A stretch of 64,000 nt of DNA from a virus (IMGVR_UViG_3300034062_003747:1-64000), one strand, 5' to 3'. Positions 5,801-64,000 are shown, numbered from the stretch's first letter. Numbers and translations: made by a program. The notes: generated by a model from the sequence alone, not told the origin.

Positions 5801-8163
5801 GCGGGTAAGGATGCATTTTCATTTGTTAATGAAACTGATAACCCATCTAATATTTTTATAGGAGTTATTTTAATTGCATCTGAAAATTCATTACCAAATT
5901 GGTCAGAACCTGAAATAAAATAAGAGGTTTCGCCTGTTGAGAATGGGTAGGATGAGCCGGCTATTGTATAAGTATCAACCCCATTAGTTGCATTTGTAGA
6001 TACTAATGTTAGTGGTGGTTTTCCGCTATCCGAATTTACGGTCAATGGAATTATTGATGATGCTAAATTTTTTCTTTTTGCTTCTATTGTTATTATTTGA
6101 CCACTTGGATTTAGGGATAAATCAGTTGCTTTATAAATAAATTGATTTGTATTTGCAGTTACAAAAACACCAGGTGCATTATCACCATCTTCAAATCTAT
6201 AAATTGTTTCAAACTCATTTAATCCATCACATGATGCAGTATAAGCTATAGAACCAATCATTATTGAACTACTCAATTCGCCTTTAAAACTATCTATACT
6301 TAAATTTGCACCACCATCTCCTGCGTTAGTTAACCCGCCAGGATATGTTCCCACATAACTAGCAGGAACTATATAATTACCATCTGTATCAAACGCAGCA
6401 GATGCGTAGGTAACCGAACCGGTTAAATTTTGTCTTGTTACTTTGAATCCAACTTGTTGAAAAGCAGGATTACCAAATGAACCAGTACTAAAACGAAATG
6501 CGGTTCTATCTGATTCAAATGTTAGGATTTTGGATGTGGTTGTAAAACTATTACCACCATTAAATGTTTTTGAAGTTTTTACATCGACGGGGATATAGTT
6601 GTTATTTATATCGTAAAATTCAAATTTAAAATCATATGTCTCACTTGCAAGTTTACGAGGAATATCTTGTATTAGGGTAAATTCATCAGGTGAAAACGAA
6701 GTTTCTTGTGCGTTTTGTAAACTTACATTAGCTAAATACCAATCATCACCCGCAAACTCAAATACTAATTTAGCATCTCCGGTCTTAGTGGCCTTTACAT
6801 TTTGAGTTACGTTTTGTTTTGTAGTATATATCGCCGAATTAGCAACATTTACAATAGTTTGTTGTGGATAATCCGAACCACTAAAATATGCTTTTAAAGT
6901 TTTGTTTGGGTCAACCGAACCACTTAAAAGAGTTTTAAATGAAAGGGTATACTCTACCCCCTCAGTAAGAGATAGGGATTGGGATGTGATAAAAAGGGCG
7001 GTATTATCGTAATTTGTACCAGTATAATCTACTTGAATTGATGCGTTTAATTTATCTACATTGATTGTAATTGGATGTGTATTCGAACCACTTACCCAAT
7101 AATTTGTTATATTTGTGTCCGTAAACTGACCATAGGATAATTCCGTATTGGCAGTTGTAGTTATATCTTTTAGTATTTCTGATGATTCTAATTTAGTATC
7201 TTGTATGAATTGATAATCACCAACTTCGTTTCTAGATTTTCTATAAACCTTTACTCTCGCTACATCACCAACAAATGTTTTTAAATCTGATAATTGAATT
7301 TTAGCAAAAGAACCCGTCAATGCTGAGTTGATTATTGTTTGTCCTTCAATATGGTCAAATGTAGTTGTGTATGCAGTAGGCGGGAAATTTGAAACGGATG
7401 ATGAGAATGTATATGGAATATCTACAAATAGTTCTTTATTATTTAGGACCTCACGTATGGTTGCGGAATACCCTAATGATGGTATTTCTATTGTGTTTTC
7501 ATCAACGGATGATGTCCAATTTGAACCATCAGTAATCTTTAATTTATATAAAGTTCCGGCTGTCCAAGTTCTAATATCAGTACCATAAACCGGTTGTTGT
7601 GGTATACCCTCAACCAATCCCGTTTGAGTAATTGATGGGGTTGTTATGTTAAAAACGGGCTTATTTATCTCATCAATTGTAATTTTTGGTCTTTTATAAA
7701 ACCTAACAATTGTTTCGTTAGCAAGATTTTTATTTATATTAAATGTTCTTTCCCACTTAATATTATAGATACCACGCCACTCTGCAGGAACATCTCTAAC
7801 TACCCCATTATCATCAATATAGGTTTTTAATTCACCTAATACAGTAATTTTTCCTAAACCAATAGGAGTGTCCTCATAAACGTGAACTGATATAATTTTT
7901 GATATACCCTCATAATATTCAGGTATACCATCACCTGGTTCATAATAAATTGGAGTACCGGTGACATCTAATATTTCTATTTTAATTTCAGTCGTTTCTT
8001 TTAAATGTTCAGAACCCTCTATAAGAAATCCATTCTTACCACCTGTAAACGTATCTTTGAATTCGGTAATTCTAAAATATTCAGACGTTCTAACTTGGTC
8101 ATTTATAAATGTCCCAAAGTTTGATAGGTTTTGATAAGAAGCGAACGATTTAATTATTGCCAT
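2878..8163 (-). CDS. Long tail fibre/virion protein with C-terminal intramolecular chaperone (peptidase S74) domain
   Basis: 1761 aa, G/S/T-rich, with a short collagen-like GxY run. C-terminal SDRRLKNI...GLIAQEVEEVLPE...DYDKIVPLLVEAVKEL. Confidence 0.85.
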   Translation of the reverse strand: MAIIKSFASYQNLSNFGTFINDQVRTSEYFRITEFKDTFTGGKNGFLIEGSEHLKETTEIKIEILDVTGTPIYYEPGDGIPEYYEGISKIISVHVYEDTPIGLGKITVLGELKTYIDDNGVVRDVPAEWRGIYNIKWERTFNINKNLANETIVRFYKRPKITIDEINKPVFNITTPSITQTGLVEGIPQQPVYGTDIRTWTAGTLYKLKITDGSNWTSSVDENTIEIPSLGYSATIREVLNNKELFVDIPYTFSSSVSNFPPTAYTTTFDHIEGQTIINSALTGSFAKIQLSDLKTFVGDVARVKVYRKSRNEVGDYQFIQDTKLESSEILKDITTTANTELSYGQFTDTNITNYWVSGSNTHPITINVDKLNASIQVDYTGTNYDNTALFITSQSLSLTEGVEYTLSFKTLLSGSVDPNKTLKAYFSGSDYPQQTIVNVANSAIYTTKQNVTQNVKATKTGDAKLVFEFAGDDWYLANVSLQNAQETSFSPDEFTLIQDIPRKLASETYDFKFEFYDINNNYIPVDVKTSKTFNGGNSFTTTSKILTFESDRTAFRFSTGSFGNPAFQQVGFKVTRQNLTGSVTYASAAFDTDGNYIVPASYVGTYPGGLTNAGDGGANLSIDSFKGELSSSIMIGSIAYTASCDGLNEFETIYRFEDGDNAPGVFVTANTNQFIYKATDLSLNPSGQIITIEAKRKNLASSIIPLTVNSDSGKPPLTLVSTNATNGVDTYTIAGSSYPFSTGETSYFISGSDQFGNEFSDAIKITPIKILDGLSVSLTNENASLPALSNGFVASGSFVLTSGSVSVKVGNESITHSNGLLISNSFDVVSAVATGVNTGSFGSSNYLDYSTTNYWIKQLDADSGSLELRVRYKDGAGDTTDVTKVATYTKNKKAAPVLSFVIGNNNQTATAKSTGAQIDAFVTASLSVIEAYDGISSTKTLVSAPDTTTTNSYTIGNKTTTTIALPNIANGTDSVDISVTGSVVDSENTTRNVFGNISLAKAKKAVPTITFAITPASQTVAANSAGTLTGTIVDPILTAFEGSTALTYNSGTLTTSQYKITNVTGVTVTSTTPSTSTIDVTAISATDNTGIVTISYVDSEGTPNTATIKFTISKSIAGTNGTNGDPGAPGSTGVTGPGVVHTGVWTSGRTYQFSNGLTDATGRRDTVLWSSTGNAPYNTYYATTRGHLSETGNVINGSPSQAAQTGWTSLGTQDFFVAAKIGIFEESFIQNTLNIGTAATAVNAANITLAGGSAYPYISIGQSSTAGSQGYDVNGIFIGVVNVNNAPVYRLSLKSATNSLKWDGTNLTITGGGTFSGALSAATGTFNGNISAATGTFTGGISGTGYSLNNSGLNLTNASSAISIGNSVVLNSSGLVGTGFSLNTAGVVATQGTIGGWTIETDKLSSPLVGGVRRLEFKPTPLIAINNAAGTPKLTIKSGPLSTIGGAGSVTLPLNSPNINISAFNDSTSQASGQRIYGSGNTFNVPNTGTYSGAVGYGATGTLATTPGGFDGYLYIGMGIQIATDSGFNSIVAEEVIASSNGQAISAGSKAFSIAFSQTGTHYLRVFWTRILFSDTTAPTTFSSAVSTFTNSALGQSVLITELTDEGFQVINDTNIYFRVKREGTYLNTNTPFVQVGGILSATGNIIAYYSDRRLKNIEGKIDNPLEKLDKINGVYYRQNELAKEFGYNNNKRQVGLIAQEVEEVLPEVIQRAPFDINEEDGSSKTGENYLTIDYDKIVPLLVEAVKELKREIEELKKRK

Positions 8164-12025: not shown

Positions 12026-13162
12026 TTATAGTAACTTAGTGTTTGGTGGGGTTTTATATTTATTTAAATCATATTTAAATTCTGCATATTTTATTAAATT
12101 AAAATTTTTTTCTATATTTCTTATATTTGTCTGATAATAAGAAAATAGGTCATCCATAGTCATTTTATGAATAACATCTAAATTTTTTTTATATTGTTCT
12201 AATATACTACTGATATTAAATTTTGGAGTTATATCGAAAAGGTCTTCCGCTAACCAAAAACCACAATCTTTTAGGTATGAATTTAAATGAGTACTACCTA
12301 ATATTAGGGGTATGTTTTGTGATATAAACGGATTCCAACTTTTTTCACTTACATGAATTAACTCTTCCGTTAATATTTGCGTTTCTAATATACAACTAAC
12401 GTATGATGTCATAGTAATTGGTAATGGAGGTAATTCAACATTAACCGACCCCTGCATACTTCTTTCCATCGGTGTGTCCAATATTACTGGCAATTTATTT
12501 TTTTTAAATTCTAATAATTTTTTATTAATATCAGAATCATTATAATTACAATTAAATCCACTATATCCTAACCAGGAATCTGTGTCTAATCCTATATTAT
12601 AAACATATTTAAAAACTTCTAATCTTTCTACTTTATCTACCCCAATAATCATATTCATCTTTTTCTGACGTACATTATGTTTATATATTTGGGTGATGTA
12701 TTCTAAATGAGGCCAATATTCTTGTAATGGTACACGATATCTATAATAATTACAATTTAAATTATAAGTTGATGGGTCTATATTAATAGTTTGGAACTTA
12801 TTTGAAAAAATTGTGTAGTGTTCAGTATCCATATACTCCATCTGATTATCATCATCAAATATAATGATTTTACAATTATTATATTTTTTTGATAATTCTA
12901 CTATGGTTTCTAATGCTTTTGGTATACCATCATCATTACCAATATATTTTGTATCAAATACAACAACATCACCGGGTTGAGGATTTATTTTATCAAATTT
13001 TTCGATTAGTTTATCATAATAAGGGGGGTCACCAATTAACTTTTGTTCAATTTCCTCTTTATCATCAAATGAATGAAAAGTATATTCTTGTTTTGGATTT
13101 AAAATATCATACCATGCCGTATATGACCCTTTACCTATGTGTTGTGCTATAATATGAATCAT
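12026..13162 (-). CDS. Putative glycosyltransferase-like protein (distant paralog of 55076 and 63009)
   Basis: Shared C-terminal block ILET...SEKS/T...PLI/PFI. Ends in KLL. Confidence 0.45.
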   Translation of the reverse strand: MIHIIAQHIGKGSYTAWYDILNPKQEYTFHSFDDKEEIEQKLIGDPPYYDKLIEKFDKINPQPGDVVVFDTKYIGNDDGIPKALETIVELSKKYNNCKIIIFDDDNQMEYMDTEHYTIFSNKFQTINIDPSTYNLNCNYYRYRVPLQEYWPHLEYITQIYKHNVRQKKMNMIIGVDKVERLEVFKYVYNIGLDTDSWLGYSGFNCNYNDSDINKKLLEFKKNKLPVILDTPMERSMQGSVNVELPPLPITMTSYVSCILETQILTEELIHVSEKSWNPFISQNIPLILGSTHLNSYLKDCGFWLAEDLFDITPKFNISSILEQYKKNLDVIHKMTMDDLFSYYQTNIRNIEKNFNLIKYAEFKYDLNKYKTPPNTKLL

Positions 13163-51358: not shown

Positions 51359-52198
51359 TTAAATTAATTTAGGAACTTGTTTCCAACTAGGGTATGGTAA
51401 ATTATATGTTGGGAAGTTTAATCTTAAATACTCATATACATTACATGCATAATCGTAGTTAGTTTTTGGACCAGGATGTACCCCATCTACTCCCTTATCT
51501 ATTTGTGGTGAAAAATAATTACCATCAAACCTATTATTATTATATTCTTTTGGTATCCCATACCATGTAGGTGGAAACGTGGGTATCTCAAACCAACCAT
51601 TCCATAACCAATTACATCCCTTTGACTCTAAAAAATATTTGATTAATTGATGATTTTTATACCAATTAATTAAATCCTCATTATCATTTTGCAATTCAGT
51701 TAAATATTTTTGTATTTTTTTACCATCTTCAGTTTCTTCCATATATTCTTGTGCCGATGTTGGCATATATGGTTCTACCCCATTATCCTTAGTATATATC
51801 TCTCGTCTTAGAGGTGAGGTATACATAATTAAAACTAAATCAGGTTTAAGTATTTCATAAAAGGTTATTAGTGCTCTACTTATATAATCATTACTTCCAC
51901 CAACCCATCCTAAATTAAAATCAACCCCATTAGGAATAAGTTTTGAAATTTGATGTGACCAAGTTTCATCATCATTTACTCCCACTCCTTCGGTATTTGA
52001 ACACCCTATCGACATTATCTTAAATCCTTTTTTATGAATTGAATCTCCTCTAAACCCCAATTCATTGTAAGTATATGTACATAATCCAGTACTATCACCA
52101 CCGGTAGTATTGAATGATTTATTTATTCTTTCTTTAAATGAGTTTTTATAAGATAAGGTTTCAAATCCATCTGATGTCCAATATTCTAATGGTTTCAT
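51359..52198 (-). CDS. SGNH/GDSL-like hydrolase or acyltransferase
   Basis: NELGFRG, IGCSNTEG, NLGWVGGSN and DGVHPG. Confidence 0.7.
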   Translation of the reverse strand: MKPLEYWTSDGFETLSYKNSFKERINKSFNTTGGDSTGLCTYTYNELGFRGDSIHKKGFKIMSIGCSNTEGVGVNDDETWSHQISKLIPNGVDFNLGWVGGSNDYISRALITFYEILKPDLVLIMYTSPLRREIYTKDNGVEPYMPTSAQEYMEETEDGKKIQKYLTELQNDNEDLINWYKNHQLIKYFLESKGCNWLWNGWFEIPTFPPTWYGIPKEYNNNRFDGNYFSPQIDKGVDGVHPGPKTNYDYACNVYEYLRLNFPTYNLPYPSWKQVPKLI

Positions 52199-52971
52199 AT
52201 TGAGTTATTTAAAACAATAAAATCATAAAGGGTATTTGCAATTAATTTATATCCATCACCATTTGGGTGTTGAGCCACTTCAATTGGATTTGGTATTTTC
52301 TTCTCCCAAATATCTTTATCTTTAAAATTTTTTATTAACCACGACTCTAAAGATTCAATTCCAAACCCCCAATAATTTGTGGTGTCAATGAGGTGAGTAG
52401 TATCGTCATTTTTATTTAAATTCTGAACCATCAAATCAAACCCATCACACATAATGTATTTTATATTATATTCATTTAACATGTGTTGTAAATAAATTAT
52501 ATAATTTTGATTTATAATATTATAATAATTTTGTGTAAATAAATTGCCTAAAAAGAATTTTTTATACTCAGTCAAAAAATTATTAAACTTTTCATCCCCA
52601 TATGTGTATGATTCTATAAATTTATTAGGTAGTTTAGATAGTTCTAATTGACCCCAACTTATCCATTCTCCTTTTGGTAGAAAGGGAACATAATCTCTTA
52701 AAGATGAACTCCACATGATAACGACAAAATCATCTTTTTTAATTTTATTATTTCTTAAATCATTTATAACCTCATTAAAAATAATATTATTTGCTTTACC
52801 GCTCCATCCATTGTTTACAGCCTCTAACCCCATCTTATTTGCAAGGTGAGTAACCCAACTATTTTTATTTCTAAATAATTGTAATTGATTTCTATCCTTA
52901 TAAGATTGTTCGGTGGGCCAATCAATTCCTACCCCCTCTGTCCAACTATCTCCGTATGCGTATAATTTCAT
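52195..52971 (-). CDS. SGNH/GDSL-like protein
   Basis: YGDSWTEG, NNGWSGKAN and QHPNGDGY. Confidence 0.7.
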   Translation of the reverse strand: MKLYAYGDSWTEGVGIDWPTEQSYKDRNQLQLFRNKNSWVTHLANKMGLEAVNNGWSGKANNIIFNEVINDLRNNKIKKDDFVVIMWSSSLRDYVPFLPKGEWISWGQLELSKLPNKFIESYTYGDEKFNNFLTEYKKFFLGNLFTQNYYNIINQNYIIYLQHMLNEYNIKYIMCDGFDLMVQNLNKNDDTTHLIDTTNYWGFGIESLESWLIKNFKDKDIWEKKIPNPIEVAQHPNGDGYKLIANTLYDFIVLNNSI

Positions 52972-53648
52972 ATTATATTTTTTAGTTTACCGTTTAAATT
53001 ATCTAAGGGCGAATATAACACATGAGGTTTCCAACATTTAATATAATTATAAAAATTTTTAAAATTATCTAATGGTGGATATAATACAGCCGGATTCCAG
53101 TTATCAATTTGATTTATAAAATAATTTTCTGCAGAATATCTATTTTCTAATGTTCCCCATCCATTTTTAACATATTGCGGTATTCTATTAATTGATTTAA
53201 TGGTAGTCCACCAAAAATTACCACCATAAAAATTATTAGGACACCAATGTTTAATAATCTCAGGATATTTGATTATATAATTATCAATTCTCATCAACAC
53301 TCCAGATGTGTCAAACCCCATATTTAACAACTTAATATGTTCTTTATAATTATCTATCAATGATGCCTCCATATATTTTCTCCACTCAATTTCATATAAC
53401 TTAGTTGGTTTCGATGCTCCCTTAGTGTGAATATATAAAATATAATCGGTATTATCAAACTCCTTTACTTCTTCTAACATTTTTAAAAAAGTGTGACATT
53501 CGTTTTCGTTAATATTGACAATATTGGGGTGATATGTGAATTCATCGGTAATCTGATTAAACACTCTTTCCTTTTGTTCCTCAGCTATTTTTAAACCAAT
53601 GTTATCTGATGTATTACCTGACCATATGTGATGATATATCCGTATCAT
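52968..53648 (-). CDS. Putative glycosyltransferase-like protein
   Basis: NENE...YIHTKG...WRKYM...GNFWW...RYSAE motif set. Confidence 0.5.
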   Translation of the reverse strand: MIRIYHHIWSGNTSDNIGLKIAEEQKERVFNQITDEFTYHPNIVNINENECHTFLKMLEEVKEFDNTDYILYIHTKGASKPTKLYEIEWRKYMEASLIDNYKEHIKLLNMGFDTSGVLMRIDNYIIKYPEIIKHWCPNNFYGGNFWWTTIKSINRIPQYVKNGWGTLENRYSAENYFINQIDNWNPAVLYPPLDNFKNFYNYIKCWKPHVLYSPLDNLNGKLKNII

Positions 53649-53706
53649 ATTAATACTTTTTTATTTGTTCTTCTTGTAATTTCTTTTGTTTCATATATTA
53701 CGATAG

Positions 53707-54330
53707 TTATTTCCAAATAGAAAATTGGTTTTGAATCTTATACCAAAATAATTCATCAGTTTTTAATAAAGTATTAATTTCAATCCATTGTTGGGGATAT
53801 GTTTTGATTAAATACTGTATTAGTTCAGATTTGGATAACCATATTGGATAGTTTGAAAAATTATACTTTACTTCATCAAAAATAGGTAATTTTTCAATAC
53901 CCATTTCTTTGGTTAAGAAATCGTTTAAATCATCCAACATTACAATAGTAGGTGGTGTAGGTAAAGAGACTCCAAACAAATATAGATATTTAAACAATTG
54001 ATGATGCCAATGTAATTGGGAGTTAATATCTATAATAAATTTATTTAACAGTTTCTTTTCTTCTAAAAATTTATTCTCCTTACTCAAACCCCCCAATAAA
54101 GATTGACTTTTTCTATTCCAACACCACTCTATAAACTCCGTATGTAATGCGGATATTAGCAAATCCATTGGAGTTCTTAAAACTACCCATTTAATATTTG
54201 AAGTTAGTGGAATTTTTATTATATCAAACAAATCAATATATTCTCTATCAATGTTATACACCTCATATAAAAAACGTGAACCACATTTTGGAGGAGTTAG
54301 AATTTGCTTGTTGAAGACGTATAATTTCAT
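53707..54330 (-). CDS. Divergent sulfotransferase-like protein
   Basis: PPKCGSRF and VLRTP...SA resemble the PAPS-binding motifs. Confidence 0.45.
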   Translation of the reverse strand: MKLYVFNKQILTPPKCGSRFLYEVYNIDREYIDLFDIIKIPLTSNIKWVVLRTPMDLLISALHTEFIEWCWNRKSQSLLGGLSKENKFLEEKKLLNKFIIDINSQLHWHHQLFKYLYLFGVSLPTPPTIVMLDDLNDFLTKEMGIEKLPIFDEVKYNFSNYPIWLSKSELIQYLIKTYPQQWIEINTLLKTDELFWYKIQNQFSIWK

Positions 54331-54336
54331 TTTACA

Positions 54337-55074
54337 TCATATTAATTTGTTGGTTTTTTCATTCAAAATTCTATTACGAATTTCTTTTGCGATAAATTTA
54401 TGTCCGGCATCATTTTCGTGTGCATATAAATCTTTAGATAATCCATTTTTTATAATAAATTCAAAAAGACCTGTAAATAATAAATCATCAATATTACTAA
54501 ATTTAATAAACTTACTTAAATCAATTTTTTTAAATATATTTAATTTTTTAACAGATTTATCTAATTTAATATAGTTAAAAAAAAGATAATCAATATTATT
54601 TTTAATAAAATATTCCTGTAATATAAACATATAGTGTAAGGTTTCCTCACTTGCCCACGGTTCAGATTTTACTTTGTTATTATTATACATAAATGTATTA
54701 AGTTCACTATCCTTTATATATAAATAATCTTTTGAATTATTTAAATAATATTCTTCACCCGTTTCAGTTAGGGTTCTTCTTCTATTCGGCCAAGTCCATT
54801 CTATAATAACTAAATCAGGTTTTTGATTTTGGGAAATTAAATGTTCTATTTCTTCTAAAGTGGTGTGTAATATCCTATCATTTCCTCCACCATAAAAAGC
54901 ACTATTAAATAATATATTATCTTCATTATTTGTATTTTTATAAGAAATTATGTTTTGTATTAAAATTTCTTTAAAATTATCCACAATTGAATACATGAGT
55001 ATTTTAGGCCAATTTAAACTGAATTCAGCCCAATCACCCGCAGAATATGAACATCCGTTTACATATAATTTCAT
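54337..55074 (-). CDS. SGNH/GDSL-like protein
   Basis: NGCSYSAG, GGGNDRI and HENDAGH. Confidence 0.65.
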   Translation of the reverse strand: MKLYVNGCSYSAGDWAEFSLNWPKILMYSIVDNFKEILIQNIISYKNTNNEDNILFNSAFYGGGNDRILHTTLEEIEHLISQNQKPDLVIIEWTWPNRRRTLTETGEEYYLNNSKDYLYIKDSELNTFMYNNNKVKSEPWASEETLHYMFILQEYFIKNNIDYLFFNYIKLDKSVKKLNIFKKIDLSKFIKFSNIDDLLFTGLFEFIIKNGLSKDLYAHENDAGHKFIAKEIRNRILNEKTNKLI

Positions 55075-55075
55075 T

Positions 55076-56332
55076 TTACATTATATTTTGTTTAATTGTG
55101 TTATTTTTTTTCAAATCATTATTTAAAATCAAATCCAATAATGAATTTTCATTGTTCATTCTAAACATAAATTTAGTATGTACCACATCAGACCATTCTT
55201 TACATAATATATAATTTTCATCAAAGTTTTCCATAAATTCTTTTACGAATTTTGAAAATAATTTACCATCAACTTTATAATTTTTAGATTCTTTATAAAA
55301 CGGATGTGGTGGAACATCAAATATTTTTTCAACCATTTCAATTGGGTATTCGTGTGTTGATATAAATGGTATCCCAGCTAATAATAATCCAATTGTTTTC
55401 TCCGAAAGGTACTGTGATGTAAATTTTTGTGTACTCCATGACCAACTCTCACATAGTATTTGCATTTTGGCTTTTGTTAAAACTCTAAAGAATATATCAC
55501 CACATCCTTTTAAATTTTCAATATAACTTATATCATCAAAATCAGTATTACCAAGTATTGAATTATTTTTAATATCATTTGAAACCAATGACCCATTTTT
55601 TTTATAATATTTATTATGATTTAACGCATCACATGTTTTTAAATAAATTTTATTGTTATTTAAATTTTTTAATTCATTTAAAATACTAACTCTGTTTGAT
55701 TTATGATTTCTTACACTATACATTAAATCATAATCAAAATTTAATTTATCATAGACCTGTTTAAATTCATACCACCATCTAATATTTAAATTTTTGTTCC
55801 ATTGAAAAATAGAATTTGTAAGTGCAAAGTGAACGTTTTGATATTTGGATTTTACATGATTATTTAGAAAAAAATTATCAGTTATAATATAATGTTGATT
55901 TAATTGTTCTAATAGTGATTCTATTTCATTTGCTTTTTCATCAAACGCAATTTCTTCATATTTTTGAAATATTTTTTCCGTTCTGAAATAAGTGATTAAC
56001 CACTTTTGGTTCTTTGGACAATCTTTTAATAGGTTTATAAATATTTTTAATATTTGTTGATTTTCCCTATCCATATAACTTCTATCTGGTAAGATTGGGC
56101 CTATTTTTGAATCTGTACTTGAATTAAAATATGCACTGAAATAATCTAATATATGATATCCATCCTCTTCAAAACTAATTTCTTCTTTAAAGATAAATTC
56201 AATATCAGTATTTTTGTATTTACAAAACACACTACCTGTATTGTTTTCAATAAAATATTTTCTATCGGTTGTATTATTTCCTAAAGTATATAATAACGAT
56301 TTATCAAACTGATGATGTATATATATTTTCAT
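55076..56332 (-). CDS. Putative glycosyltransferase-like protein (paralog of 63009)
   Basis: KMQILCESW...YLSEKTIG...GIPFIST; extensive identity to the 63009 ORF. Confidence 0.5.
   Translation of the reverse strand: MKIYIHHQFDKSLLYTLGNNTTDRKYFIENNTGSVFCKYKNTDIEFIFKEEISFEEDGYHILDYFSAYFNSSTDSKIGPILPDRSYMDRENQQILKIFINLLKDCPKNQKWLITYFRTEKIFQKYEEIAFDEKANEIESLLEQLNQHYIITDNFFLNNHVKSKYQNVHFALTNSIFQWNKNLNIRWWYEFKQVYDKLNFDYDLMYSVRNHKSNRVSILNELKNLNNNKIYLKTCDALNHNKYYKKNGSLVSNDIKNNSILGNTDFDDISYIENLKGCGDIFFRVLTKAKMQILCESWSWSTQKFTSQYLSEKTIGLLLAGIPFISTHEYPIEMVEKIFDVPPHPFYKESKNYKVDGKLFSKFVKEFMENFDENYILCKEWSDVVHTKFMFRMNNENSLLDLILNNDLKKNNTIKQNIM
55191..55251. repeat. 61-bp near-identical direct repeat (other copy at 63121-63181)
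   Basis: GACCATTCTTTACATAA..TATAATTTTCATCAAAGTTTTCCATAAATTCTTTTACGAATT, with 2 mismatches. Confidence 0.9.
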
Positions 56333-56341
56333 AACTTTAGT

Positions 56342-56812
56342 TTATAAAAGTGTTATGCATTTTGCACCAAATGAATATACAAGTTTAATCGCCGCTATAT
56401 TCCATTCAAATATTTCCATTCTAATTTCTCTAAATTTTTTAAAAATAATTTTAGTTGTATTGCTATAAAACCAGTTCGAAGATTCATTTGGTCTTTCTAT
56501 TACATTTGTAATGTATAAATTATAAGTAAAGCAACTGTCATTATTTATTTTTTTAAACCACCTATAACCAACCGGTTGTTCTTTATAATAAAATATAAAC
56601 ACATAATGACCATCATTAATTCTAGTATACACGTCAGTTATATTAAACATTCCGTCCCATTTATATTCTATATTAAAATAGTCAATCAATGTTTTCATTG
56701 AGTTTATATTTTTTTCTAACGTATCTAAATCCTCCACCAAAACATAACTTAAATCTTCATGTTCGGTTGTATATTCTATAAAAGTTTCTTTTGTTAGTTT
56801 AAAGGTTTTCAT
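56342..56812 (-). CDS. GNAT-fold protein
   Basis: PVGYRWF...YNLYI...WNIAAIKL GNAT-like pattern. Confidence 0.55.
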   Translation of the reverse strand: MKTFKLTKETFIEYTTEHEDLSYVLVEDLDTLEKNINSMKTLIDYFNIEYKWDGMFNITDVYTRINDGHYVFIFYYKEQPVGYRWFKKINNDSCFTYNLYITNVIERPNESSNWFYSNTTKIIFKKFREIRMEIFEWNIAAIKLVYSFGAKCITLL

Positions 56813-57411
56813 AATATTGTTTGGTATTTTTTATTAACAAATAAAATATTTAAATCTTTCCAATTTATTTTTTTATTAATCTCCTCTTTATTAATTACTA
56901 TAAAGTTATTTTTTTCTAAATATTCAATAAGATAGGTGTGCCTATTTTCAGTATTATATAAATTTTCATTTCTACTCCCTTCAACTTGTCCTCTTTTTAT
57001 TAAAGATATTTTTTCATTTAGGGATTTAAGAATATCCAAATCACTACCTTGAGCATCACAATGAAAGTAATCAATTGAATCTATATTATTTTCATCTATA
57101 AATGTATCTAATCTTATAACTTCTACATCCACTTCCATTTCATATTCGGTGATTTTATTTTCAATACTATAATTGGATAGTTCATTTATTGAAGATGACA
57201 TTTTATTTTTTCCAATATAAAATTTTGAAATTCCATTTATCATTCCCACCGCTTTATTTATTATTTTAATATTTTTTTTATTAAAAAATCTTAATTTTAA
57301 TTTTTCCGCGTGATAGTTGTCCGGTTCAAAACAATAAACAAACGAATCATCTTTGAGATATTTTTCAGTATCTTCACCATCAAATCCACCTATTTCTATA
57401 ATTGTTTTCAT
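56809..57411 (-). CDS. FkbM family SAM methyltransferase
   Basis: IEIGGFDG, CFEP, NKAV, RLDTF and HCDAQGSD. Confidence 0.88.
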   Translation of the reverse strand: MKTIIEIGGFDGEDTEKYLKDDSFVYCFEPDNYHAEKLKLRFFNKKNIKIINKAVGMINGISKFYIGKNKMSSSINELSNYSIENKITEYEMEVDVEVIRLDTFIDENNIDSIDYFHCDAQGSDLDILKSLNEKISLIKRGQVEGSRNENLYNTENRHTYLIEYLEKNNFIVINKEEINKKINWKDLNILFVNKKYQTIL

Positions 57412-57412
57412 T

Positions 57413-58006
57413 TTAAATTAGTTTAGTAATGACATTATTTGAAGGATAAATAAAAATACAACCTCTTTTTTTAACTCCATTCATATATGATTCTTTACTA
57501 ACATATTTTTCGTAACTATTTTTTCCATAAATCAACTCAACGTTAGATTTAATATGTTTCCAATTCAATTCTATGTTATTTCCGTTTTCATCAATATAAC
57601 GTTCATAATCCCAATTCTCGTGGCCACAATCAAAATCATGTATAATAATAATTGGTTTATAATTAAAATTTGAAATTATTTTCAATTCATCATTTATCGG
57701 CCAAGTACCCCAATGAGCATCTAAAAATATAAAAAATTTATCATGCCCTATTTCTATAAAAAATTTCTCTAAACATTCGGGTGAATTTCCTTTTAATATT
57801 TTAATATTCGGATTATTATTAAATCTATAATATAAAGGGAAATATTTACTATCTAATTCACAGCTATAAACTTTATCAAAAATGTGTTGTAAAATATCGA
57901 CAGATTCTCCTTTGTTTGTACCCGTTTCTATTATAATGTTATAATCAAATTTTTGTTTTAATTTCATTATATCAATTATTAACATGCTATCTTGCTTAAA
58001 CCCCAT
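57413..58006 (-). CDS. Class I SAM-dependent methyltransferase-like protein
   Basis: IETGTNKG, SCEL, GNS, FLDAH and IIHD. Confidence 0.75.
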   Translation of the reverse strand: MGFKQDSMLIIDIMKLKQKFDYNIIIETGTNKGESVDILQHIFDKVYSCELDSKYFPLYYRFNNNPNIKILKGNSPECLEKFFIEIGHDKFFIFLDAHWGTWPINDELKIISNFNYKPIIIIHDFDCGHENWDYERYIDENGNNIELNWKHIKSNVELIYGKNSYEKYVSKESYMNGVKKRGCIFIYPSNNVITKLI

Positions 58007-58042
58007 AGTAATATATTTTTTTATTTTCTATTAAGATGTTTA

Positions 58043-58798
58043 TCATAATAATCTTAAAGGTTTTTTTTTATACTTTGTTAGATTATAATTTATTGTTTCA
58101 TACTCAACATCTTCAATTGTAATTTGAATTTTTGATTTACAATTTTGATTTAGATTATCGGTTTTTTTTAAAATAACATTTGCTAACATGGGTTGGACTC
58201 CGATTGAATAATGAACATCTTCATTGTTATGAAAATTATTTTTAATTAACCAATTAGCAAACCCATCTTCAAATTTAATATTTGTTCCATAATTTAATAG
58301 TGTATCCGTATAAGATGACTCCTCAATGAAAATATAAAATATAGATATTTTTTTAGATATTAAATATTCAAATAACGGATTTATTAATTTAAATAATCTA
58401 AAATTATAATCTAATGAATTTTTTAAATAATAATCTACTAAAGATAAAACTCCTTCGTTTTCTTCTAACACTCTACTATATTTTTTTTTGTTAATAATTT
58501 CATTATCATATAGTTCATTAAATAATACATTAGTAGATTCAATTGTATTAGTTACTTTATTTAAAAAACAACCTCTGGAAAGAAAAGAAAAATTAATGAG
58601 TATTATATCCCCCTCCCTATAATTTTGTAATTGTTCTAATATTTTTCTAAAAATAATTTCGTTTGATGCTCCTCCAACTGTGAATGCGGGAATATATTTA
58701 TACTCTATACTATCCGCAATATGATGACAAAAATGTTTATTATCACCATAATAATTTACTGTTCCATAACTATCACCAAAATGAAATAATTTTTTCAT
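58043..58798 (-). CDS. SGNH/GDSL-like protein
   Basis: FGDSY, GGASN and DVHY. Confidence 0.6.
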   Translation of the reverse strand: MKKLFHFGDSYGTVNYYGDNKHFCHHIADSIEYKYIPAFTVGGASNEIIFRKILEQLQNYREGDIILINFSFLSRGCFLNKVTNTIESTNVLFNELYDNEIINKKKYSRVLEENEGVLSLVDYYLKNSLDYNFRLFKLINPLFEYLISKKISIFYIFIEESSYTDTLLNYGTNIKFEDGFANWLIKNNFHNNEDVHYSIGVQPMLANVILKKTDNLNQNCKSKIQITIEDVEYETINYNLTKYKKKPLRLL

Positions 58799-58799
58799 A

Positions 58800-59963
58800 T
58801 TAAAAATTTGTGAATATTTGTATATTTTGATAATCCGTTTTCAATTTTTTTAATTTATTAACTTCGTCTAAAAACATTACATGCTCAGGATGTTCTGAGT
58901 TTCTTACATTTTTTATTTTAAATTGTCCTTCTGTAAATGTTCCCCAGTTATTAATATGGATAAAGTTTACTTCCGTTTTCATACCATTTAGTTTTTGTAA
59001 GTAATCTGCCAATTCCACAAACCCAATCATTTCCGTATAATTATTATTTTGAACTACGAATGTTAATCTTACAAAATCTAAATTTGGTATTTTAGTGAAT
59101 ATAAATTGTAAGTTTTTATAAAGAATATCCCAATTACCACCTAATCTTATTTGTTCATAAGTTTCCTTTGTACATGCGTCTATACTAATTTCTGCCGTTA
59201 TTCTTGGTATTGAATGTAGATTTTCTAATCTATCCCATATTTTTTCTGTCCATCCGTTTCCGTTTGTGTGTAAATGTAAATTTTTTGTATTTGGGTATTT
59301 TTCCATTGTAATGGATTTTAAAAGATTACGCCAAAACTCACTCCCAAATCCATCGCCACTTGCGGTAATGTATAATTCGTGAGCATCATTCATTGCAAAT
59401 TCTAAAATTTTATCCTGTATGGTTTCTGATTTTTCTCTTTCTTTGCCCGTAGTATTAATAAAATCGGTTCTACATGATGGGCATTTAAGGTTACAACTTC
59501 TATCATGTGAAAAAATAACACACTCGGGCCCCCATGGTAAATCTGATATTTTTTCTTCAATAATTTTTTTAAACTTCTCTTCTCCGTCTGGGTTAATGGT
59601 TTTATTGTTCCAAAGTTTATGAAATGTTTTTTCGTCAAAAATTGGGAAATACCCATTATCATAAACACTTTCATCTATTTCTTCATTATTCCATTTTTGT
59701 AAAAATCCACATTCTTTTTCATCACAATATTTCATACTACCATCGTGCATAGAATCTCTCAATTTGATTGCAACCTCACTATTCCAAATATTATTCCAAT
59801 TATCTGTCAATGCATTACCAGCAGGTCCACACTTAACCCAAGCGTTTACCCATCGTTTTTCTTCCTCACTCCAAGCACCGGAACAACATTGCCAAACTAA
59901 ACCATTTGACTGAAATTCGGCATTTCTGAATGGTGCTACACAAAATCCTTTTTTATTACTCAT
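58800..59963 (-). CDS. Radical SAM protein with N-terminal SPASM/twitch-like Cys domain
   Basis: FCVAPF...CC...C, CNLKCPSC, HTNG and SIDA. Confidence 0.88.
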   Translation of the reverse strand: MSNKKGFCVAPFRNAEFQSNGLVWQCCSGAWSEEEKRWVNAWVKCGPAGNALTDNWNNIWNSEVAIKLRDSMHDGSMKYCDEKECGFLQKWNNEEIDESVYDNGYFPIFDEKTFHKLWNNKTINPDGEEKFKKIIEEKISDLPWGPECVIFSHDRSCNLKCPSCRTDFINTTGKEREKSETIQDKILEFAMNDAHELYITASGDGFGSEFWRNLLKSITMEKYPNTKNLHLHTNGNGWTEKIWDRLENLHSIPRITAEISIDACTKETYEQIRLGGNWDILYKNLQFIFTKIPNLDFVRLTFVVQNNNYTEMIGFVELADYLQKLNGMKTEVNFIHINNWGTFTEGQFKIKNVRNSEHPEHVMFLDEVNKLKKLKTDYQNIQIFTNF

Positions 59964-61186
59964 ATTAACGTTGTATTTTTTTTAGGAAAATTTCCATTAT
60001 TGATTAATATGTAACTTTCAATTGGAAAATTTAATCTTGTTGATTTAGGTACATTTAACACTTTTTTTAATTGGGAATTATTTTTAATACATACTAAATT
60101 TTTATTTGATATTATCTTTTCTAATTCATTTGGTAATTTTTTTTCTTTATATGTTTTCCAAAAAGTAGTATTGTTTTTTGAACAATTATAATGATGTCTA
60201 ATTATAATCATATTTTGTCTTTGTATATTATTTATACTTTCATTAAATTCATTTTCACTTAAAGTATTATTTAAATATTTTTTAAAAGTTTTTAATTGTA
60301 CCACAATTGTCATAATTGAGGTTGCTTCCAATGGTTCTAAAAAACCAGAACTTAACCCTACAATTAAACAATTATTTATTAATGTTTTTTCATAAGTTCC
60401 TGGTTCAAAAGTAATTGTTTTATTAATTTGTATATCATTTCCAAATTTGTTTATTATTTCCGTTTTTGCAATATCTTCTGAAATAAGTTTTTTGTCAAAA
60501 ATATATCCACACCCCCATCTATTTTGTAATGGTATTTGCCAAACCCACCCATAATCCATTGCAATTGCATTTGTTCTTGTATTAACCGTAACATCATTCC
60601 TTTTTAAGAAAAAAGGTATTGCTGTATTAACTATTAATTCATCAGCATAAGTTTTCCACTTTAATTTAAATAGTTTTGGGGTTAACCTATGAAATCCACT
60701 ACAATCAAATACAAAATCCGTATCATAATTGATATTATTTTCTAATTTAATACTATTAATATCACCTTTTTCATTTTGTTCAATATTTTTTATTTTCCCA
60801 TCTATGTGTTCTACTCCTCTGATTATCGCAATTTCTTTTAAATAATCTGCTAATAATCTTGCATCAAAATGATATGCATATACACTTTTATCTTCTTCCA
60901 TTAAATCACCAAATCCATGAACATATGAATAATCTATATCTGACCAGTTGTGGAAATGAATACCTATTTTTTTTGTTCCATTTACTTTTTTTAATAAATC
61001 GCTTTCATCAATTTCTAATTCCGATAGGAAATTTACCAAATTTGGAGTACTCCCTTCACCGGCACCTAGTATACCAATTTCCGAACTTTCTATTAGTTTT
61101 ACGTTTGAATTTTTGTAATATTTTTTTGCAAAAATTGCAGTTAACCATCCGGCTGTTCCTCCACCAATTATTATAATATTGTTCAT
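59960..61186 (-). CDS. Flavin-dependent (tryptophan) halogenase family protein
   Basis: GGGTAGW, GAGEGST, AYHFDA, DCSGF, GWVWQIP (WxWxIP) and FLEPLEATSI. Confidence 0.9.
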   Translation of the reverse strand: MNNIIIIGGGTAGWLTAIFAKKYYKNSNVKLIESSEIGILGAGEGSTPNLVNFLSELEIDESDLLKKVNGTKKIGIHFHNWSDIDYSYVHGFGDLMEEDKSVYAYHFDARLLADYLKEIAIIRGVEHIDGKIKNIEQNEKGDINSIKLENNINYDTDFVFDCSGFHRLTPKLFKLKWKTYADELIVNTAIPFFLKRNDVTVNTRTNAIAMDYGWVWQIPLQNRWGCGYIFDKKLISEDIAKTEIINKFGNDIQINKTITFEPGTYEKTLINNCLIVGLSSGFLEPLEATSIMTIVVQLKTFKKYLNNTLSENEFNESINNIQRQNMIIIRHHYNCSKNNTTFWKTYKEKKLPNELEKIISNKNLVCIKNNSQLKKVLNVPKSTRLNFPIESYILINNGNFPKKNTTLI

Positions 61187-61665
61187 ATCAACGTTGTTTT
61201 TTTAATTAAATCCTCATAGTTAACAAATAACAAAGCACTTTTTCTAATTCCTTTTGTTATTTTACTTATTTCATGTAATCTATCTGATTTAAAAAAATAA
61301 GGAATTCCTGGTGTTTTGTCAACAATAGAATCGGGATTATATAAAATATATTCCCCTCCATCGTAATCATCATTTATATGAAATCCCACAACATACGCCC
61401 TATTTTTATAACCCCTTTCAACTGAATCAATATGTTTACCAAAATAATCACCCACATTATATTTATGGAGTGTTAAATTATAATCGTAAGATTTTAGTTT
61501 TTCACCACTTTCAATTTCAAACCAATTTAATAGTTTAGTGGTTATATTCATTTCATTATTTGTAAGAACCGCAAATTCGTAACTTCGGTTTTTTAATTTT
61601 CTAAAATCCGTATTATTCCAAAAAGATTTTAAAAAATCTAATTCAATATCACTATATAACTTCAT
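61183..61665 (-). CDS. 2OG-Fe(II) oxygenase
   Basis: HID, NDDYDGGE and HEI...GIRKS. Confidence 0.85.
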   Translation of the reverse strand: MKLYSDIELDFLKSFWNNTDFRKLKNRSYEFAVLTNNEMNITTKLLNWFEIESGEKLKSYDYNLTLHKYNVGDYFGKHIDSVERGYKNRAYVVGFHINDDYDGGEYILYNPDSIVDKTPGIPYFFKSDRLHEISKITKGIRKSALLFVNYEDLIKKTTLI

Positions 61666-61667
61666 TT

Positions 61668-62276
61668 TTAATATATATTTTTTTTAGAACCATAATCCTT
61701 AGTATAATCTAATATTGTAAATCCTCCTGCATAAACGATTCGTTCTATATCCGAACTACGATTTAATTCAGGTTTGTGTAATAAATTTGCTGGAAATAAA
61801 ATTAAATCTCCTACTTGTGGTAAATACGATACTTCTATACCTTCATTTGTTCTAAATAATATTTTTCCTTCTTGCTCGTTTAAATTATCAGGCATTTGTG
61901 CATAATAAACAAATGACCAATCTATATCCGTTTTTAAAGTATCGCTAAAAGTATGTGTATGAAATCTTGTCCAGTTGTTATTTTTATTAGAGACATATAT
62001 CCATTCGGTACTAAAATATAAATTTATATCATTTGTATTATAATTTAAAAATTTAAAAATTTTTTTATATATTTTAGTATTTAAATTTTTAATTGCTTTT
62101 GTTTTTAAAATTATATATGATTGAATACCATGTTCTTTAACAGATTCGACTGATGTTTTTTTATTTACTTTCATATTAAATTTTAAATCTTTTATTAATT
62201 CAAAATTATTAATAGTTGGTAAATTTGTAATATAAAAAGAAACCACATCAGTTATTTTTATTTCTTTAAATTTCAT
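61668..62276 (-). CDS. Putative 2OG-Fe(II) oxygenase (TIGR02466-like)
   Basis: HTH, SFVYY and GDLILFPANLLH...ERI. Confidence 0.8.
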   Translation of the reverse strand: MKFKEIKITDVVSFYITNLPTINNFELIKDLKFNMKVNKKTSVESVKEHGIQSYIILKTKAIKNLNTKIYKKIFKFLNYNTNDINLYFSTEWIYVSNKNNNWTRFHTHTFSDTLKTDIDWSFVYYAQMPDNLNEQEGKILFRTNEGIEVSYLPQVGDLILFPANLLHKPELNRSSDIERIVYAGGFTILDYTKDYGSKKNIY

Positions 62277-63008
62277 TTATATTAAATTTATTTTATGTTT
62301 TTTTTCTTGTTTTAATAAAAACTCATTTAATTCTTCTGCTATTTTTGCATGGCCAGAAATAGAAAGGTGCGATGATTCTGTATTTAAAAATTTATATTTT
62401 GTTGACCACTTTAAAATAGAATATTCGTTTTCCAAATTAAAAAAATTTCTTTTTTTTAATTCTTCTAACTGATTATCATTGTTTATTTCTGGCCAATACA
62501 TTAATAAAATTTTATTATTTTTTTTCTCCGCATGTGAAACCAACGTATCAATTTGATATAATAAATAATTAAAAGTTTCTTTTTCATTATAATGATGTTC
62601 AATATAAGATGAATACATTTTTAACATTTCATCAATCGTATCATTTTTGTTTATATTTTTATCGTACATTTCCGAAATTAATGGATTTTTAAAATCAACT
62701 TCAAAATTTACAAAATTTGATTTTTCATTATATGTAGGTATAACATTAAATGCGTTGGGTTGGTAATTTACCCATTTTTGAAAATATGAACTATATAAAC
62801 CAAGTCTATGTAACCAAGTAATTTGTAATATTATAAACGAATTTTCTATATTGTGTTTTGTTATATAATCATATATTTTATAAATAATATGATTATTACT
62901 TAATCCCGGATGTGATAAATTACTAACATCGTATCCCATCTCTTTTAATATAGCACCATATGACTTAGTACCACATGAATATGAACAACCGGAAATTAAA
63001 ACTTTCAT
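62277..63008 (-). CDS. SGNH/GDSL-like protein
   Basis: SGCSYS, NLSHPGLSN and SHLSISGH. Confidence 0.65.
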   Translation of the reverse strand: MKVLISGCSYSCGTKSYGAILKEMGYDVSNLSHPGLSNNHIIYKIYDYITKHNIENSFIILQITWLHRLGLYSSYFQKWVNYQPNAFNVIPTYNEKSNFVNFEVDFKNPLISEMYDKNINKNDTIDEMLKMYSSYIEHHYNEKETFNYLLYQIDTLVSHAEKKNNKILLMYWPEINNDNQLEELKKRNFFNLENEYSILKWSTKYKFLNTESSHLSISGHAKIAEELNEFLLKQEKKHKINLI

Positions 63009-64000
63009 TTAAATTAGTTTTGATGTGGTGGTGGTGGAATATTTAAAGTCGTTAATCATCAAATCTAATAAAGAGTTTTCATTATAAAATTTATCCATAA
63101 AAGCTATATGACATATATCTGACCATTCTTTACATAAAGTATAATTTTCATCAAAGTTTTCCATAAATTCTTTTACGAATTCTGCAATCTTAACCGCATC
63201 TCCTTTTATTTTTTTACTTTCATTATAAAATGGGTGAGGTGGTATATCTAAAATTTTATTTAAAACTTCTAATGGGTAACTATGTGTTGATATAAATGGT
63301 ATACCTGATAATACAAACCCTATGGTTTTTTCTGAAAGGTAATGTGATGCAAAATCTGAATCTGCCCACGACCAACTTTCATCTAATATTTGCATTTTTG
63401 AAATATTTAATACTCTATAAAATAAATCTAAACCAAGTCTATTTTTATGTATTAAATGTAAATTATCAAAATCGTTATCACCTTCCATAGAATTTAGGTA
63501 TATATCCGTTACTTTATTTTCATGTGTTAAATTTAGTTCACTATTTTTACGAGCATCTGACCTTTGTAAAAAAATCCTATTATTATTAAGTTTTTTTAAT
63601 TCATTTAATAAAAGTATTCTATTGTATTTATATGACCTAATTGAAAAACACAAATCATAATCAAAATTTAATTTATCATATATTTTTTTAAATTCATAAT
63701 ACCATCTTATTTCTGCATGAAAATTCCAATACCACATTGAATTTGAAAAAGTATAATAAAAATTAGAGTATTTTAATCTTATTTCATCTTTTATAAAAAC
63801 TTCTTCTAATACTATTTTATGATTTTTTAATTTTAAAAAAGAATTTTCTATATCGTATAATAAATCCATATTTTTCTTATAAAATACATTTTCATATTTA
63901 AATAAAGTCTTTTCACCATTGAAAAACATTATTATCCAATTCGTTTTACCTTCTAATAAATTACATAAATTATCAACGGGATTATTGACTATATTATCTA
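63009..64000 (-). CDS. Putative glycosyltransferase-like protein (paralog of 55076; 5' end beyond the window)
   Basis: The frame stays open upstream of the ATG at 63929 (DNIVNNPVDNLCNLLEGKTNWIIMFF) and aligns with the middle of the 55076 protein. Confidence 0.55.
   Translation of the reverse strand, partial: DNIVNNPVDNLCNLLEGKTNWIIMFFNGEKTLFKYENVFYKKNMDLLYDIENSFLKLKNHKIVLEEVFIKDEIRLKYSNFYYTFSNSMWYWNFHAEIRWYYEFKKIYDKLNFDYDLCFSIRSYKYNRILLLNELKKLNNNRIFLQRSDARKNSELNLTHENKVTDIYLNSMEGDNDFDNLHLIHKNRLGLDLFYRVLNISKMQILDESWSWADSDFASHYLSEKTIGFVLSGIPFISTHSYPLEVLNKILDIPPHPFYNESKKIKGDAVKIAEFVKEFMENFDENYTLCKEWSDICHIAFMDKFYNENSLLDLMINDFKYSTTTTSKLI

Follow-up and report, generated by a model that had tools for sequence, protein, structure and literature searches.

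The DNA analysed here (IMGVR_UViG_3300034062_003747:1-64000, hereafter the window) comprises the first 64 kb of one 77.8-kb viral contig, and positions above 64000 are given in contig coordinates. Its last part, from 51359 to 64000, is occupied by a cassette of tightly packed genes, all of them on the minus strand, whose products share a short C-terminal ending. The tripeptide class [KRTN]-[LI]-[LIM] at the free C-terminus, referred to below as the tag, is found in 12 of the 16 open reading frames (ORFs) of this region. Read from 51359 towards 64000, the endings are PKLI, NNSI, KNII, SIWK, NKLI, QNIM, ITLL, QTIL, TKLI, LRLL, FTNF, TTLI, TTLI, KNIY, INLI and SKLI; they agree exactly with the list in a first-pass annotation of the sequence that had drawn attention to the motif. 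Two additional cassette genes located past the end of the window terminate in KKIL and KKLI, so that the tag is present in 14 of the 18 proteins of the cassette. An untagged gene encoding an ATP-grasp/Hint/Hint protein (contig 65630-67456; L082:5630-7456) is located a short distance beyond the window; with respect to transcription, it stands directly upstream of the cassette. The ending is selected as amino acids, is an add-on to the proteins that bear it and is confined to one gene module.

The occurrence of the tag in the cassette is far beyond chance. The tripeptide class makes up 1.07% of the internal positions of the cassette proteins, which corresponds to 0.19 expected C-terminal matches versus the 14 observed (binomial p ~7e-25). 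In the remaining 66 ORFs of the contig only 4 matches are found (Fisher p 2e-9 versus the cassette), a result that contradicts the possibility, raised in the first-pass annotation, of a motif equally frequent among AT-rich genes at large; compact, AT-rich genes elsewhere in the contig lack it. The post hoc definition of the motif inflates these p-values, though not by a margin that large.

The last gene of the cassette (51359-52198) encodes a 279-amino-acid (aa) enzyme-like protein that ends in PKLI and has no Pfam match, with no start codon of another gene within 75 nt downstream. It is preceded by a 258-aa GDSL/SGNH hydrolase recognized by Pfam (52195-52971), whose NNSI ending is an untagged near miss in a family tagged in 22 of 23 cases in related loci, and by a tagged 226-aa ORF of no assigned family (52968-53648; KNII). 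The following 207-aa ORF (53707-54330) is untagged, ending in SIWK, and three relatives in other loci end in IKLI, KKFL and TKFI. Next to it are found a tagged 245-aa DUF6071/SGNH-like protein assigned by Pfam (54337-55074; NKLI), separated by a 6-nt gap from the next start, a tagged 418-aa ORF of no assigned family (55076-56332; QNIM) with orthologues ending in KNLM and KKLL, and a tagged 156-aa ORF (56342-56812; ITLL) that leaves a 9-nt gap to the next start. Further upstream, the tag is carried by a 200-aa FkbM methyltransferase assigned by Pfam (56809-57411; QTIL), a 197-aa ORF (57413-58006; TKLI) and a 251-aa ORF (58043-58798; KKKPLRLL), the latter with a gap of 36 nt to the next start. 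The untagged 387-aa radical SAM/SPASM protein identified by Pfam (58800-59963; FTNF) is the best-conserved protein of the cassette, with 88-91% identity to relatives whose ATP-grasp/Hint proteins are 55-60% identical; it lacks the tag throughout this clade (FTNF, FTNS), and elsewhere the family is tagged in 8 of 10 cases.

The upstream part of the cassette continues with a 408-aa flavin-dependent, tryptophan-type halogenase (59960-61186; Pfam Trp_halogenase) that ends in PKKNTTLI and belongs to a family tagged in 67 of 78 members, followed by two 2-oxoglutarate (2OG)-Fe(II) oxygenases recognized by Pfam. The first, of 160 aa (61183-61665), ends in KKTTLI, and its family is tagged in 138 of 142 members; the second, of 202 aa and of the Oxy_5 type (61668-62276), is a near miss ending in KNIY, and its family bears the tag in 57 of 59 members, mostly as KSLI. 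A tagged 243-aa ORF (62277-63008; KKHKINLI) and the 3' part of a tagged 420-aa ORF (63009-64000 of contig 63009-64271; SKLI) complete the region up to the window end. Beyond it, the tagged genes at contig 64272-64886 (KKIL) and 64886-65458 (KKLI) are paralogues of each other, as are those starting at 55076 and 63009, and by eye both products of 64272-65458 display an N-terminal sulfotransferase-like P-loop motif that has no Pfam match. Between them and the ATP-grasp/Hint gene, directly after the latter, a conserved 47-aa ORF with no family match (contig 65479-65622; L082:5479-5622) shows 49-66% identity among relatives, all of which end in LKA[KR]HS. With regard to the claim that the carriers are unrelated folds, Pfam supports the GDSL/SGNH, DUF6071, FkbM, Trp_halogenase and two 2OG families, but it provides no support for the labels GNAT, class I methyltransferase and GT-like, and some of the tagged carriers are the paralogues just mentioned.

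Selection on the ending at the protein level

The cassette contains 21-30% G+C and ATGA overlaps occur at 5 of its 18 junctions, features that would favor a purely nucleotide-level origin of the ending, as a by-product of AT-rich codons and of a translational-coupling sequence for the next gene (TTAATATGA, TAATTTAAATG) that happens to encode K/N/T-L/I-I/L. This explanation is refuted by the tests run here and retains hardly any probability. The motif keeps a fixed register with respect to the stop codon, whereas the ATG that follows is found at -4, -1, 0, +1, +2, +6, +9 or +36, or is missing altogether; of 12 genes free of overlap with a following start, 9 bear the tag, one of them being the final cassette gene. 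In the codon-shuffled, overlap-aware null model that the first-pass annotation had proposed, where the last three codons were sampled from those of the gene itself and the A imposed by the ATGA overlaps was retained, the maximum in 20,000 trials was 3 matches out of 18. Besides the absence of the motif from similarly compact, AT-rich genes of the contig, orthologues followed by other downstream genes keep the ending. The coupling context around TTAATATGA, which had been contemplated as a full explanation, therefore fails.

Codon usage points in the same direction. In 559 distinct tails pooled from related loci and ending in two aliphatic or hydrophobic residues, Leu at -2, Ser/Thr at -3 and Lys at -4 are encoded by synonymous codons in the proportions found in gene bodies; the codons for Thr and Ser at -3 must contain G/C, and all synonymous codon families are employed, including TCN and AGY for Ser and TTR and CTN for Leu. 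The last Ile deviates from this pattern, with ATA reaching 77% in tags versus 46% in gene bodies, an over-use that could be taken in favor of a by-product but is accounted for by the A that ATGA overlaps require. The synonymous variation described earlier for the cassette is thus borne out, except that one of the quoted examples, AAG-TTA-CTA, comes from the ORF at 12026-13162, outside the cassette. Register with the stop codon, body-like codons and conservation in orthologues all agree with the protein-level selection that had been suggested.

At the sequence level, the tail fits the consensus K-x-x-K-[S/T/K/N]-[L/I]-[I/L]-COOH as part of a flexible extension of 5-10 residues. A logo of 679 tails shows Lys at -7 (41%) and at -4 (52%), S/T/K/N at -3, Leu (68%) or Ile (23%) at -2 and Ile or Leu at -1. 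The Lys-rich character noticed at first sight holds across 80 related loci, where at least one Lys at positions -8 to -3 is present in 94% of the tagged tails versus 50% of the untagged proteins. The proposed lack of structure is likewise confirmed for the halogenase, whose AlphaFold model has a mean predicted local distance difference test score (pLDDT) of 92.7 that drops to ~60 over the last 8 residues and to <50 for residues 406-408, with secondary structure absent after residue 399.

Comparison with homologues demonstrates both the conservation of the tail and its nature as an addition. The ending K-x-K-T-[LIF]-[ILV] is shared by nearly all of 120 halogenase homologues (43-90% identity), so that it is kept in orthologues from related phages down to 43% identity. 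FkbM homologues of at least 43% identity also retain the tail, while those of greater divergence are 5-7 residues shorter at this end and terminate with the last conserved strand; similarly, untagged halogenases end in NNGNFDLQ where the tagged ones continue as NNGNF-PKKNTTLI. The tail can therefore be regarded as an add-on, since untagged relatives of both families stop 5-8 residues earlier. In orthologous cassettes from metagenomes (55-90% identity) the upstream residues drift (KKTTLI, REGNLI, IEKNLL) and the two final aliphatic residues are kept.

Distribution of the tag around the ATP-grasp/Hint gene

The extent of the system was addressed in 80 viral loci around halogenase homologues, obtained by an alignment-based scan of viral contigs (a single-protein halogenase scan gave no match), whose ORFs were clustered into families. 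Tagging of these families is bimodal, with 19 of 67 tagged in at least 80% of their members and 35 of 67 in at most 20%. The tagged group includes two kinds of 2OG oxygenase, the halogenase, SGNH hydrolases, radical SAM enzymes, FkbM methyltransferases, a 95-aa Cys-rich protein, several families of no assigned function class, and proteins in which a sulfotransferase-like P-loop motif was recognized by eye but not by Pfam. Untagged neighbors are an APS-kinase-like protein, an HxGH nucleotidyltransferase, a small DUF2061-like membrane protein and a gene of ~496 aa, which is the ATP-grasp/Hint gene. Tagging is centered on this gene, as it reaches 90-94% at gene positions -5 to -1 and 83-93% at +1 to +3, and a tagged version of the gene was encountered in 1 of 48 loci. 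Nearly every enzyme encoded beside it bears the tail in hundreds of related contigs, and a tagged halogenase is present in 24 of the 24 loci where the ATP-grasp/Hint gene would be visible and is present. In agreement with the initial proposal, the tag thus defines one module of interchangeable genes.

Phages with the same enzymes and without the tag have also been found. Tandem arrays of 2OG dioxygenases and tryptophan halogenases, predicted to modify peptides, were described in cyanophages and related T4-like aquatic phages with no mention of a shared tail (Iyer et al. 2010, PMC2938197). These arrays resemble the cassette in combining several kinds of 2OG oxygenase with tryptophan-type halogenases; however, Syn9 and also HTVC008M have neither an ATP-grasp/Hint gene nor any of the endings. 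Both are likewise absent from a 114-kb phage (99% complete) that encodes these enzyme families, for which the search included a positive control. Conversely, in two complete relatives of 237 and 289 kb (G008 and G009) strict tags cluster around the ATP-grasp/Hint gene, with 10 of 12 and 12 of 17 of them, respectively, located in its neighborhood. The contig is syntenic with both genomes over most of its length, and it encodes gp25, a gp6-like wedge protein, SegE, PhoH, RNA ligase and Hsp20 as T4-like markers, which together mark it as part of the genome of a jumbo T4-like phage of ~240-290 kb. No ATP-grasp/Hint system was found in deposited phage genomes, a pattern scan of 185,579 prokaryote genomes returned no ATP-grasp/Hint gene, and the Atlas clusters resembling the protein are 96-100% viral. 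The system appears confined to uncultured aquatic phages, and nothing points to the Bacteroidota host assumed at the outset. In the literature searched, neither the tag nor the ATP-grasp/Hint gene was found to be described.

Four proteins encoded outside the cassette were also considered. An NT5C-like 5'-nucleotidase (contig 69625-70110; L082:9625-10110) ends in KRLL, with orthologues ending in NKLL, and a 119-aa protein (contig 73430-73789; L082:13430-13789) ends in RKLI, with orthologues ending in KTLI or IKLI and others in MKIG; judging from these endings, both may be extra clients of the tag system. The peptide deformylase, which ends in GKIL, was discarded as a tag bearer because its orthologues end in AEIV, YEIV and similar sequences, a feature of the family, and the TKLL ending of the ORF at 12026-13162 is probably due to chance, as the single relative found does not have it. 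In relatives (L085:265-1284, L087:1499-2529; typical loci such as L047:8424-9457) genes for the APS-kinase-like protein, the HxGH nucleotidyltransferase and the DUF2061-like membrane protein are located upstream of the ATP-grasp/Hint gene, a set that probably supplies 3'-phosphoadenosine-5'-phosphosulfate. The contig studied here lacks the three genes, yet it retains the P-loop paralogues at 64272-65458.

The distribution of the tag bears on what might read it. A tail with a basic stretch and two aliphatic residues at the free end resembles the C-motif 2 of ClpX substrates (MuA-type) and polybasic membrane anchors, a resemblance of sequence only, and a host factor or another phage factor could recognize it as a degron for an AAA+ protease of the MuA-type ClpX-like kind, as a handle for a chaperone or small heat-shock protein, or as a weak polybasic-hydrophobic membrane tether, thereby imposing a common timing, turnover or location on the enzymes. 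An Hsp20 gene adjoins the cassette both here and in the complete relatives, typical cassettes encode the small DUF2061-like membrane protein, and the Pfam scan of the contig ORFs turned up no known reader domain. Nevertheless, the tag tracks one phage gene in contigs that vary widely in size and gene context, and related phages with the same enzyme families go without it, which is not what a general host factor predicts. Moreover, Hsp20 is also present in cyanophages that have no tag, and with two aliphatic residues a protein would be anchored to a membrane very weakly. Reading by such a factor is thus considered unlikely. The neighboring Hsp20 was rejected as the reader because it has an I-x-I/V ending of its own and tracks phage synteny instead of the tag.

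The ATP-grasp/Hint protein and the proposed reading of the tail

Structural information on the ATP-grasp/Hint protein comes from a model of moderate quality (pLDDT 66). In this model, residues 1-290 appear to adopt the fold of glutathione synthetase (Z 9.4, 237 aligned residues), YgiC/YjfC (Z 9.0-9.1) and glutathionylspermidine synthetase (GspS; Z 8.1), with a Foldseek probability of 1.0, although Pfam does not detect an ATP-grasp domain in the protein. In the protein of this contig the ATP-grasp domain is permuted. Ligases of the glutathione synthetase/YgiC/GspS type activate a peptide C-terminal carboxylate and add an amine to it. Two clades of the protein with 25% identity to each other both have E22-x-N24, K174, R109 and D119 as invariant residues; that these belong to the active site is deduced from motif resemblance and not from residue-level superposition. 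Residues 298-472 of the model align to inteins and bacterial intein-like (BIL) domains with Z up to 9.7; this first Hint domain (Hint1) has no conserved nucleophile at its start, with an invariant Gly nearby, and its final H471 and N472 are invariant across both clades. Hint2 is matched by Pfam PT-HINT and Intein_splicing and possesses Cys1, T-x-x-H and a terminal HN followed by Lys at +1, a constellation that would allow a thioester but not splicing. A splicing intein was accordingly rejected, as Hint1 lacks a conserved N-terminal nucleophile and Hint2 a +1 nucleophile, in favor of autoprocessing Hint/BIL-type domains.

The protein varies considerably downstream of Hint1. In its common form, a Cys/Trp-rich peptide of ~30 aa follows the His-Asn of the Hint. 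In the contig studied here, the HN is followed by a single Trp, the second, canonical Hint, and then Lys and the stop codon (HN|W|C...HN|K-stop), with WQ replacing the single Trp between the Hints in relatives of 55-60% identity. Across 90 cluster representatives the segment between Hints ranges from 0 to 30 residues, being empty (13), AP (13), A, SP, GP, YY, IY or longer, up to the Cys-rich peptide, and as many as four tandem Hints are found. Cassettes of 8-16 tagged enzymes persist with an AP, SP or empty segment, and in this clade the tag is present without any Cys-rich peptide, from which it follows that the tag is independent of that peptide. All forms have in common the ATP-grasp domain and the first Hint. 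In some variants (L006, L050) a self-cleaving Peptidase_S74 domain stands in for the second Hint. The same intramolecular-chaperone domain is located at the C-terminus of a 1761-aa protein of the window (2878-8163), which by virtue of it is identified as a tail fiber or spike.

The explanation that we favor, with reasonable though far from full confidence, is that the tail is a short linear recognition label for one viral module built around the acidic ATP-grasp/Hint protein. A flexible extension of 5-10 residues, added to the ends of otherwise unrelated enzymes, would mark their membership in the module; a common partner would read the free carboxylate together with both aliphatic side chains, aided by the lysines, and interchangeable enzymes could in this way be recruited without co-evolving surfaces. 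As to the identity of the partner, the ATP-grasp/Hint protein is the best candidate, with a probability that we place a little below even, because it is the sole untagged gene product that always accompanies the tag, because the net charges of its two parts (~-25 and -14) are opposite to that of the tails (+1.7 on average), and because its structural relatives bind peptide C-terminal carboxylates. A complex prediction with its residues 1-483 and the tagged 160-aa 2OG oxygenase, run without controls, gave scores of 0.32, 0.00 and 0.00 and speaks neither for nor against binding.

Several observations weigh against the recognition label or against this choice of reader. The PDZ- or TPR-like reader envisaged in the first-pass annotation did not materialize, since neither of these nor another known peptide-reading domain was detected by Pfam in nearly all contig ORFs of at least 100 aa; the contig being only a fragment of the phage, the gene for a reader may lie in another part of the phage genome or in the host. 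Few independent negative cases underlie the association between the tag and the ATP-grasp/Hint gene, and a few loci have the ATP-grasp/Hint gene with only 1-3 tagged neighbors. The residue at -3 differs between clades of the ATP-grasp/Hint protein, with S/T in the common one and a larger share of K/N in that of this contig, but the shift is weak and lacks phylogenetic independence. Phyletic profiling aimed at a reader yielded 118 families present in both complete tag-bearing genomes and absent from one complete tag-free genome, which is too distant to discriminate among them.

The biochemistry of the related ligases also suggests a covalent role for the tail, as a chemical handle for the ATP-grasp/Hint protein. 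According to this possibility, which is rated as quite unlikely, the ATP-grasp domain would activate the tail carboxylate, or a tail Lys would resolve an activated acyl group held as a Hint thioester or an ATP-grasp acyl-phosphate, leading to a covalent conjugate of the enzyme with the ATP-grasp/Hint protein or with a peptide. All the structural relatives of the N-terminal domain found with the model join an amine to the C-terminal carboxylate of a peptide, the tag is required at the extreme end of the protein, and the Lys enrichment at -8 to -3 with its peaks at -4 and -7 is in line with this chemistry, as is the predicted ability of Hint2 in this contig to make a thioester without splicing. 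Furthermore, the BIL2 Hint of the Tetrahymena BUBL locus, which ranks second among the Foldseek matches, forms Lys isopeptide bonds in such a manner and without ATP (PMC8616854). In both cases Hints flank a short segment, one freeing its N-terminus and the other activating its C-terminus as a thioester; however, in the phage a single Trp (0-30 residues in relatives) takes the place of the ubiquitin-like domain, and the phage protein adds an ATP-grasp ligase. Against a covalent handle, it is not obvious what purpose the covalent capture of 10-18 enzymes would serve, no Lys position of the tail is invariant, and the common form of the protein has one Hint without an N-terminal nucleophile and hence no thioester. 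In its most specific version, the protein would carry out phage-encoded protein or aminoacyl conjugation without E1 and E2, coupling an activated acyl to a tail Lys or activating the tail carboxylate to tag or tether the enzyme set; the acyl would be the Hint2 thioester on Trp in this clade and an acyl-phosphate in the common form. Such a conjugation system is regarded as improbable.

Comparison with known C-terminal signals and implications

The recognition label would belong to a known principle. The type 1 peroxisomal targeting signal (PTS1) is a C-terminal -SKL-COOH read by the TPR domain of Pex5. The targeting complex of the cytosolic iron-sulfur cluster assembly (CIA) machinery reads the C-terminal tripeptide [LIM]-[DES]-[WF]-COO- (Marquez et al., PMC10245660). 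The phage tag resembles both in that a few portable residues at the free C-terminus are common to unrelated enzymes, residues that in PTS1 and CIA are necessary and sufficient for recruitment to one machine. It differs from them in its sequence (K-x-x-K-[STKN]-[LI]-[IL]), in belonging to a virus of prokaryotes and in having carriers that come from one gene cassette, and the phage system shows no homology to Pex5 or to CIA proteins. PTS1 itself, defined as [SAC]-[KRH]-[LM]-COOH, was rejected because the phage endings are [STKN]-[LI]-[IL] in a virus of prokaryotes, SKL appears only with a following I, and Pfam gave no TPR match among the contig ORFs scanned.

Among prokaryotic systems, the LPXTG/sortase, PEP-CTERM/exosortase and GlyGly-CTERM/rhombosortase pairs combine a C-terminal sorting signal with one dedicated processing enzyme, and as in the phage system the shared ending of unrelated proteins co-occurs with one partner gene. 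Those signals, however, extend over ~20-30 residues with a transmembrane helix in secreted proteins, whereas the cytoplasmic-type enzymes of the phage end in a soluble tail of 4-8 residues, neither signal peptide nor sortase being present; a sortase- or exosortase-type signal was discarded because just two terminal residues are hydrophobic and the preceding 6-10 are rich in Lys, Asn, Ser and Thr. The class I PDZ-binding motif, x-[S/T]-x-hydrophobic-COOH, shares with the tail the free carboxylate, the hydrophobic last residue and a nearby Ser/Thr, but the latter stands at -3 and not at -2, a position taken by Leu or Ile, so the sequence is not that of a class I ligand.

In natural-product biosynthesis, the leader peptides of RiPPs (ribosomally synthesized peptides that undergo post-translational modification) are read by RiPP recognition element (RRE) domains, and docking domains of nonribosomal peptide synthetases and polyketide synthases recruit tailoring enzymes. 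The likeness lies in bringing many tailoring enzymes to one substrate-bearing protein, given that the common form of the ATP-grasp/Hint protein carries its Cys/Trp-rich peptide behind a self-cleaving domain. The polarity is nonetheless inverted, as the label is on the enzymes and not on the substrate, and the protein of this clade has no such peptide. A RiPP leader/RRE system was rejected because Pfam finds no PqqD-type match on the enzymes of the window and the segment after Hint1 is here just W or WQ. Therefore, while the principle of a C-terminal client tag is known, the phage tag fits none of the PTS1, CIA or prokaryotic sorting-signal definitions, and the viral module is undescribed.

The tag constitutes a simple handle for finding in metagenomes the members of an undescribed viral modification system, together with its partner and product, and, if it is indeed a portable address, it would also provide a compact tag for engineered enzyme recruitment. 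For the phages themselves, an address of this kind would represent a rule to assemble and reshuffle multi-enzyme pathways, in which an enzyme joins the module by gaining about six residues, without the need for a matching surface. This would explain the strong differences between the cassettes of related phages, with 18 genes in the one described here and other sets elsewhere.

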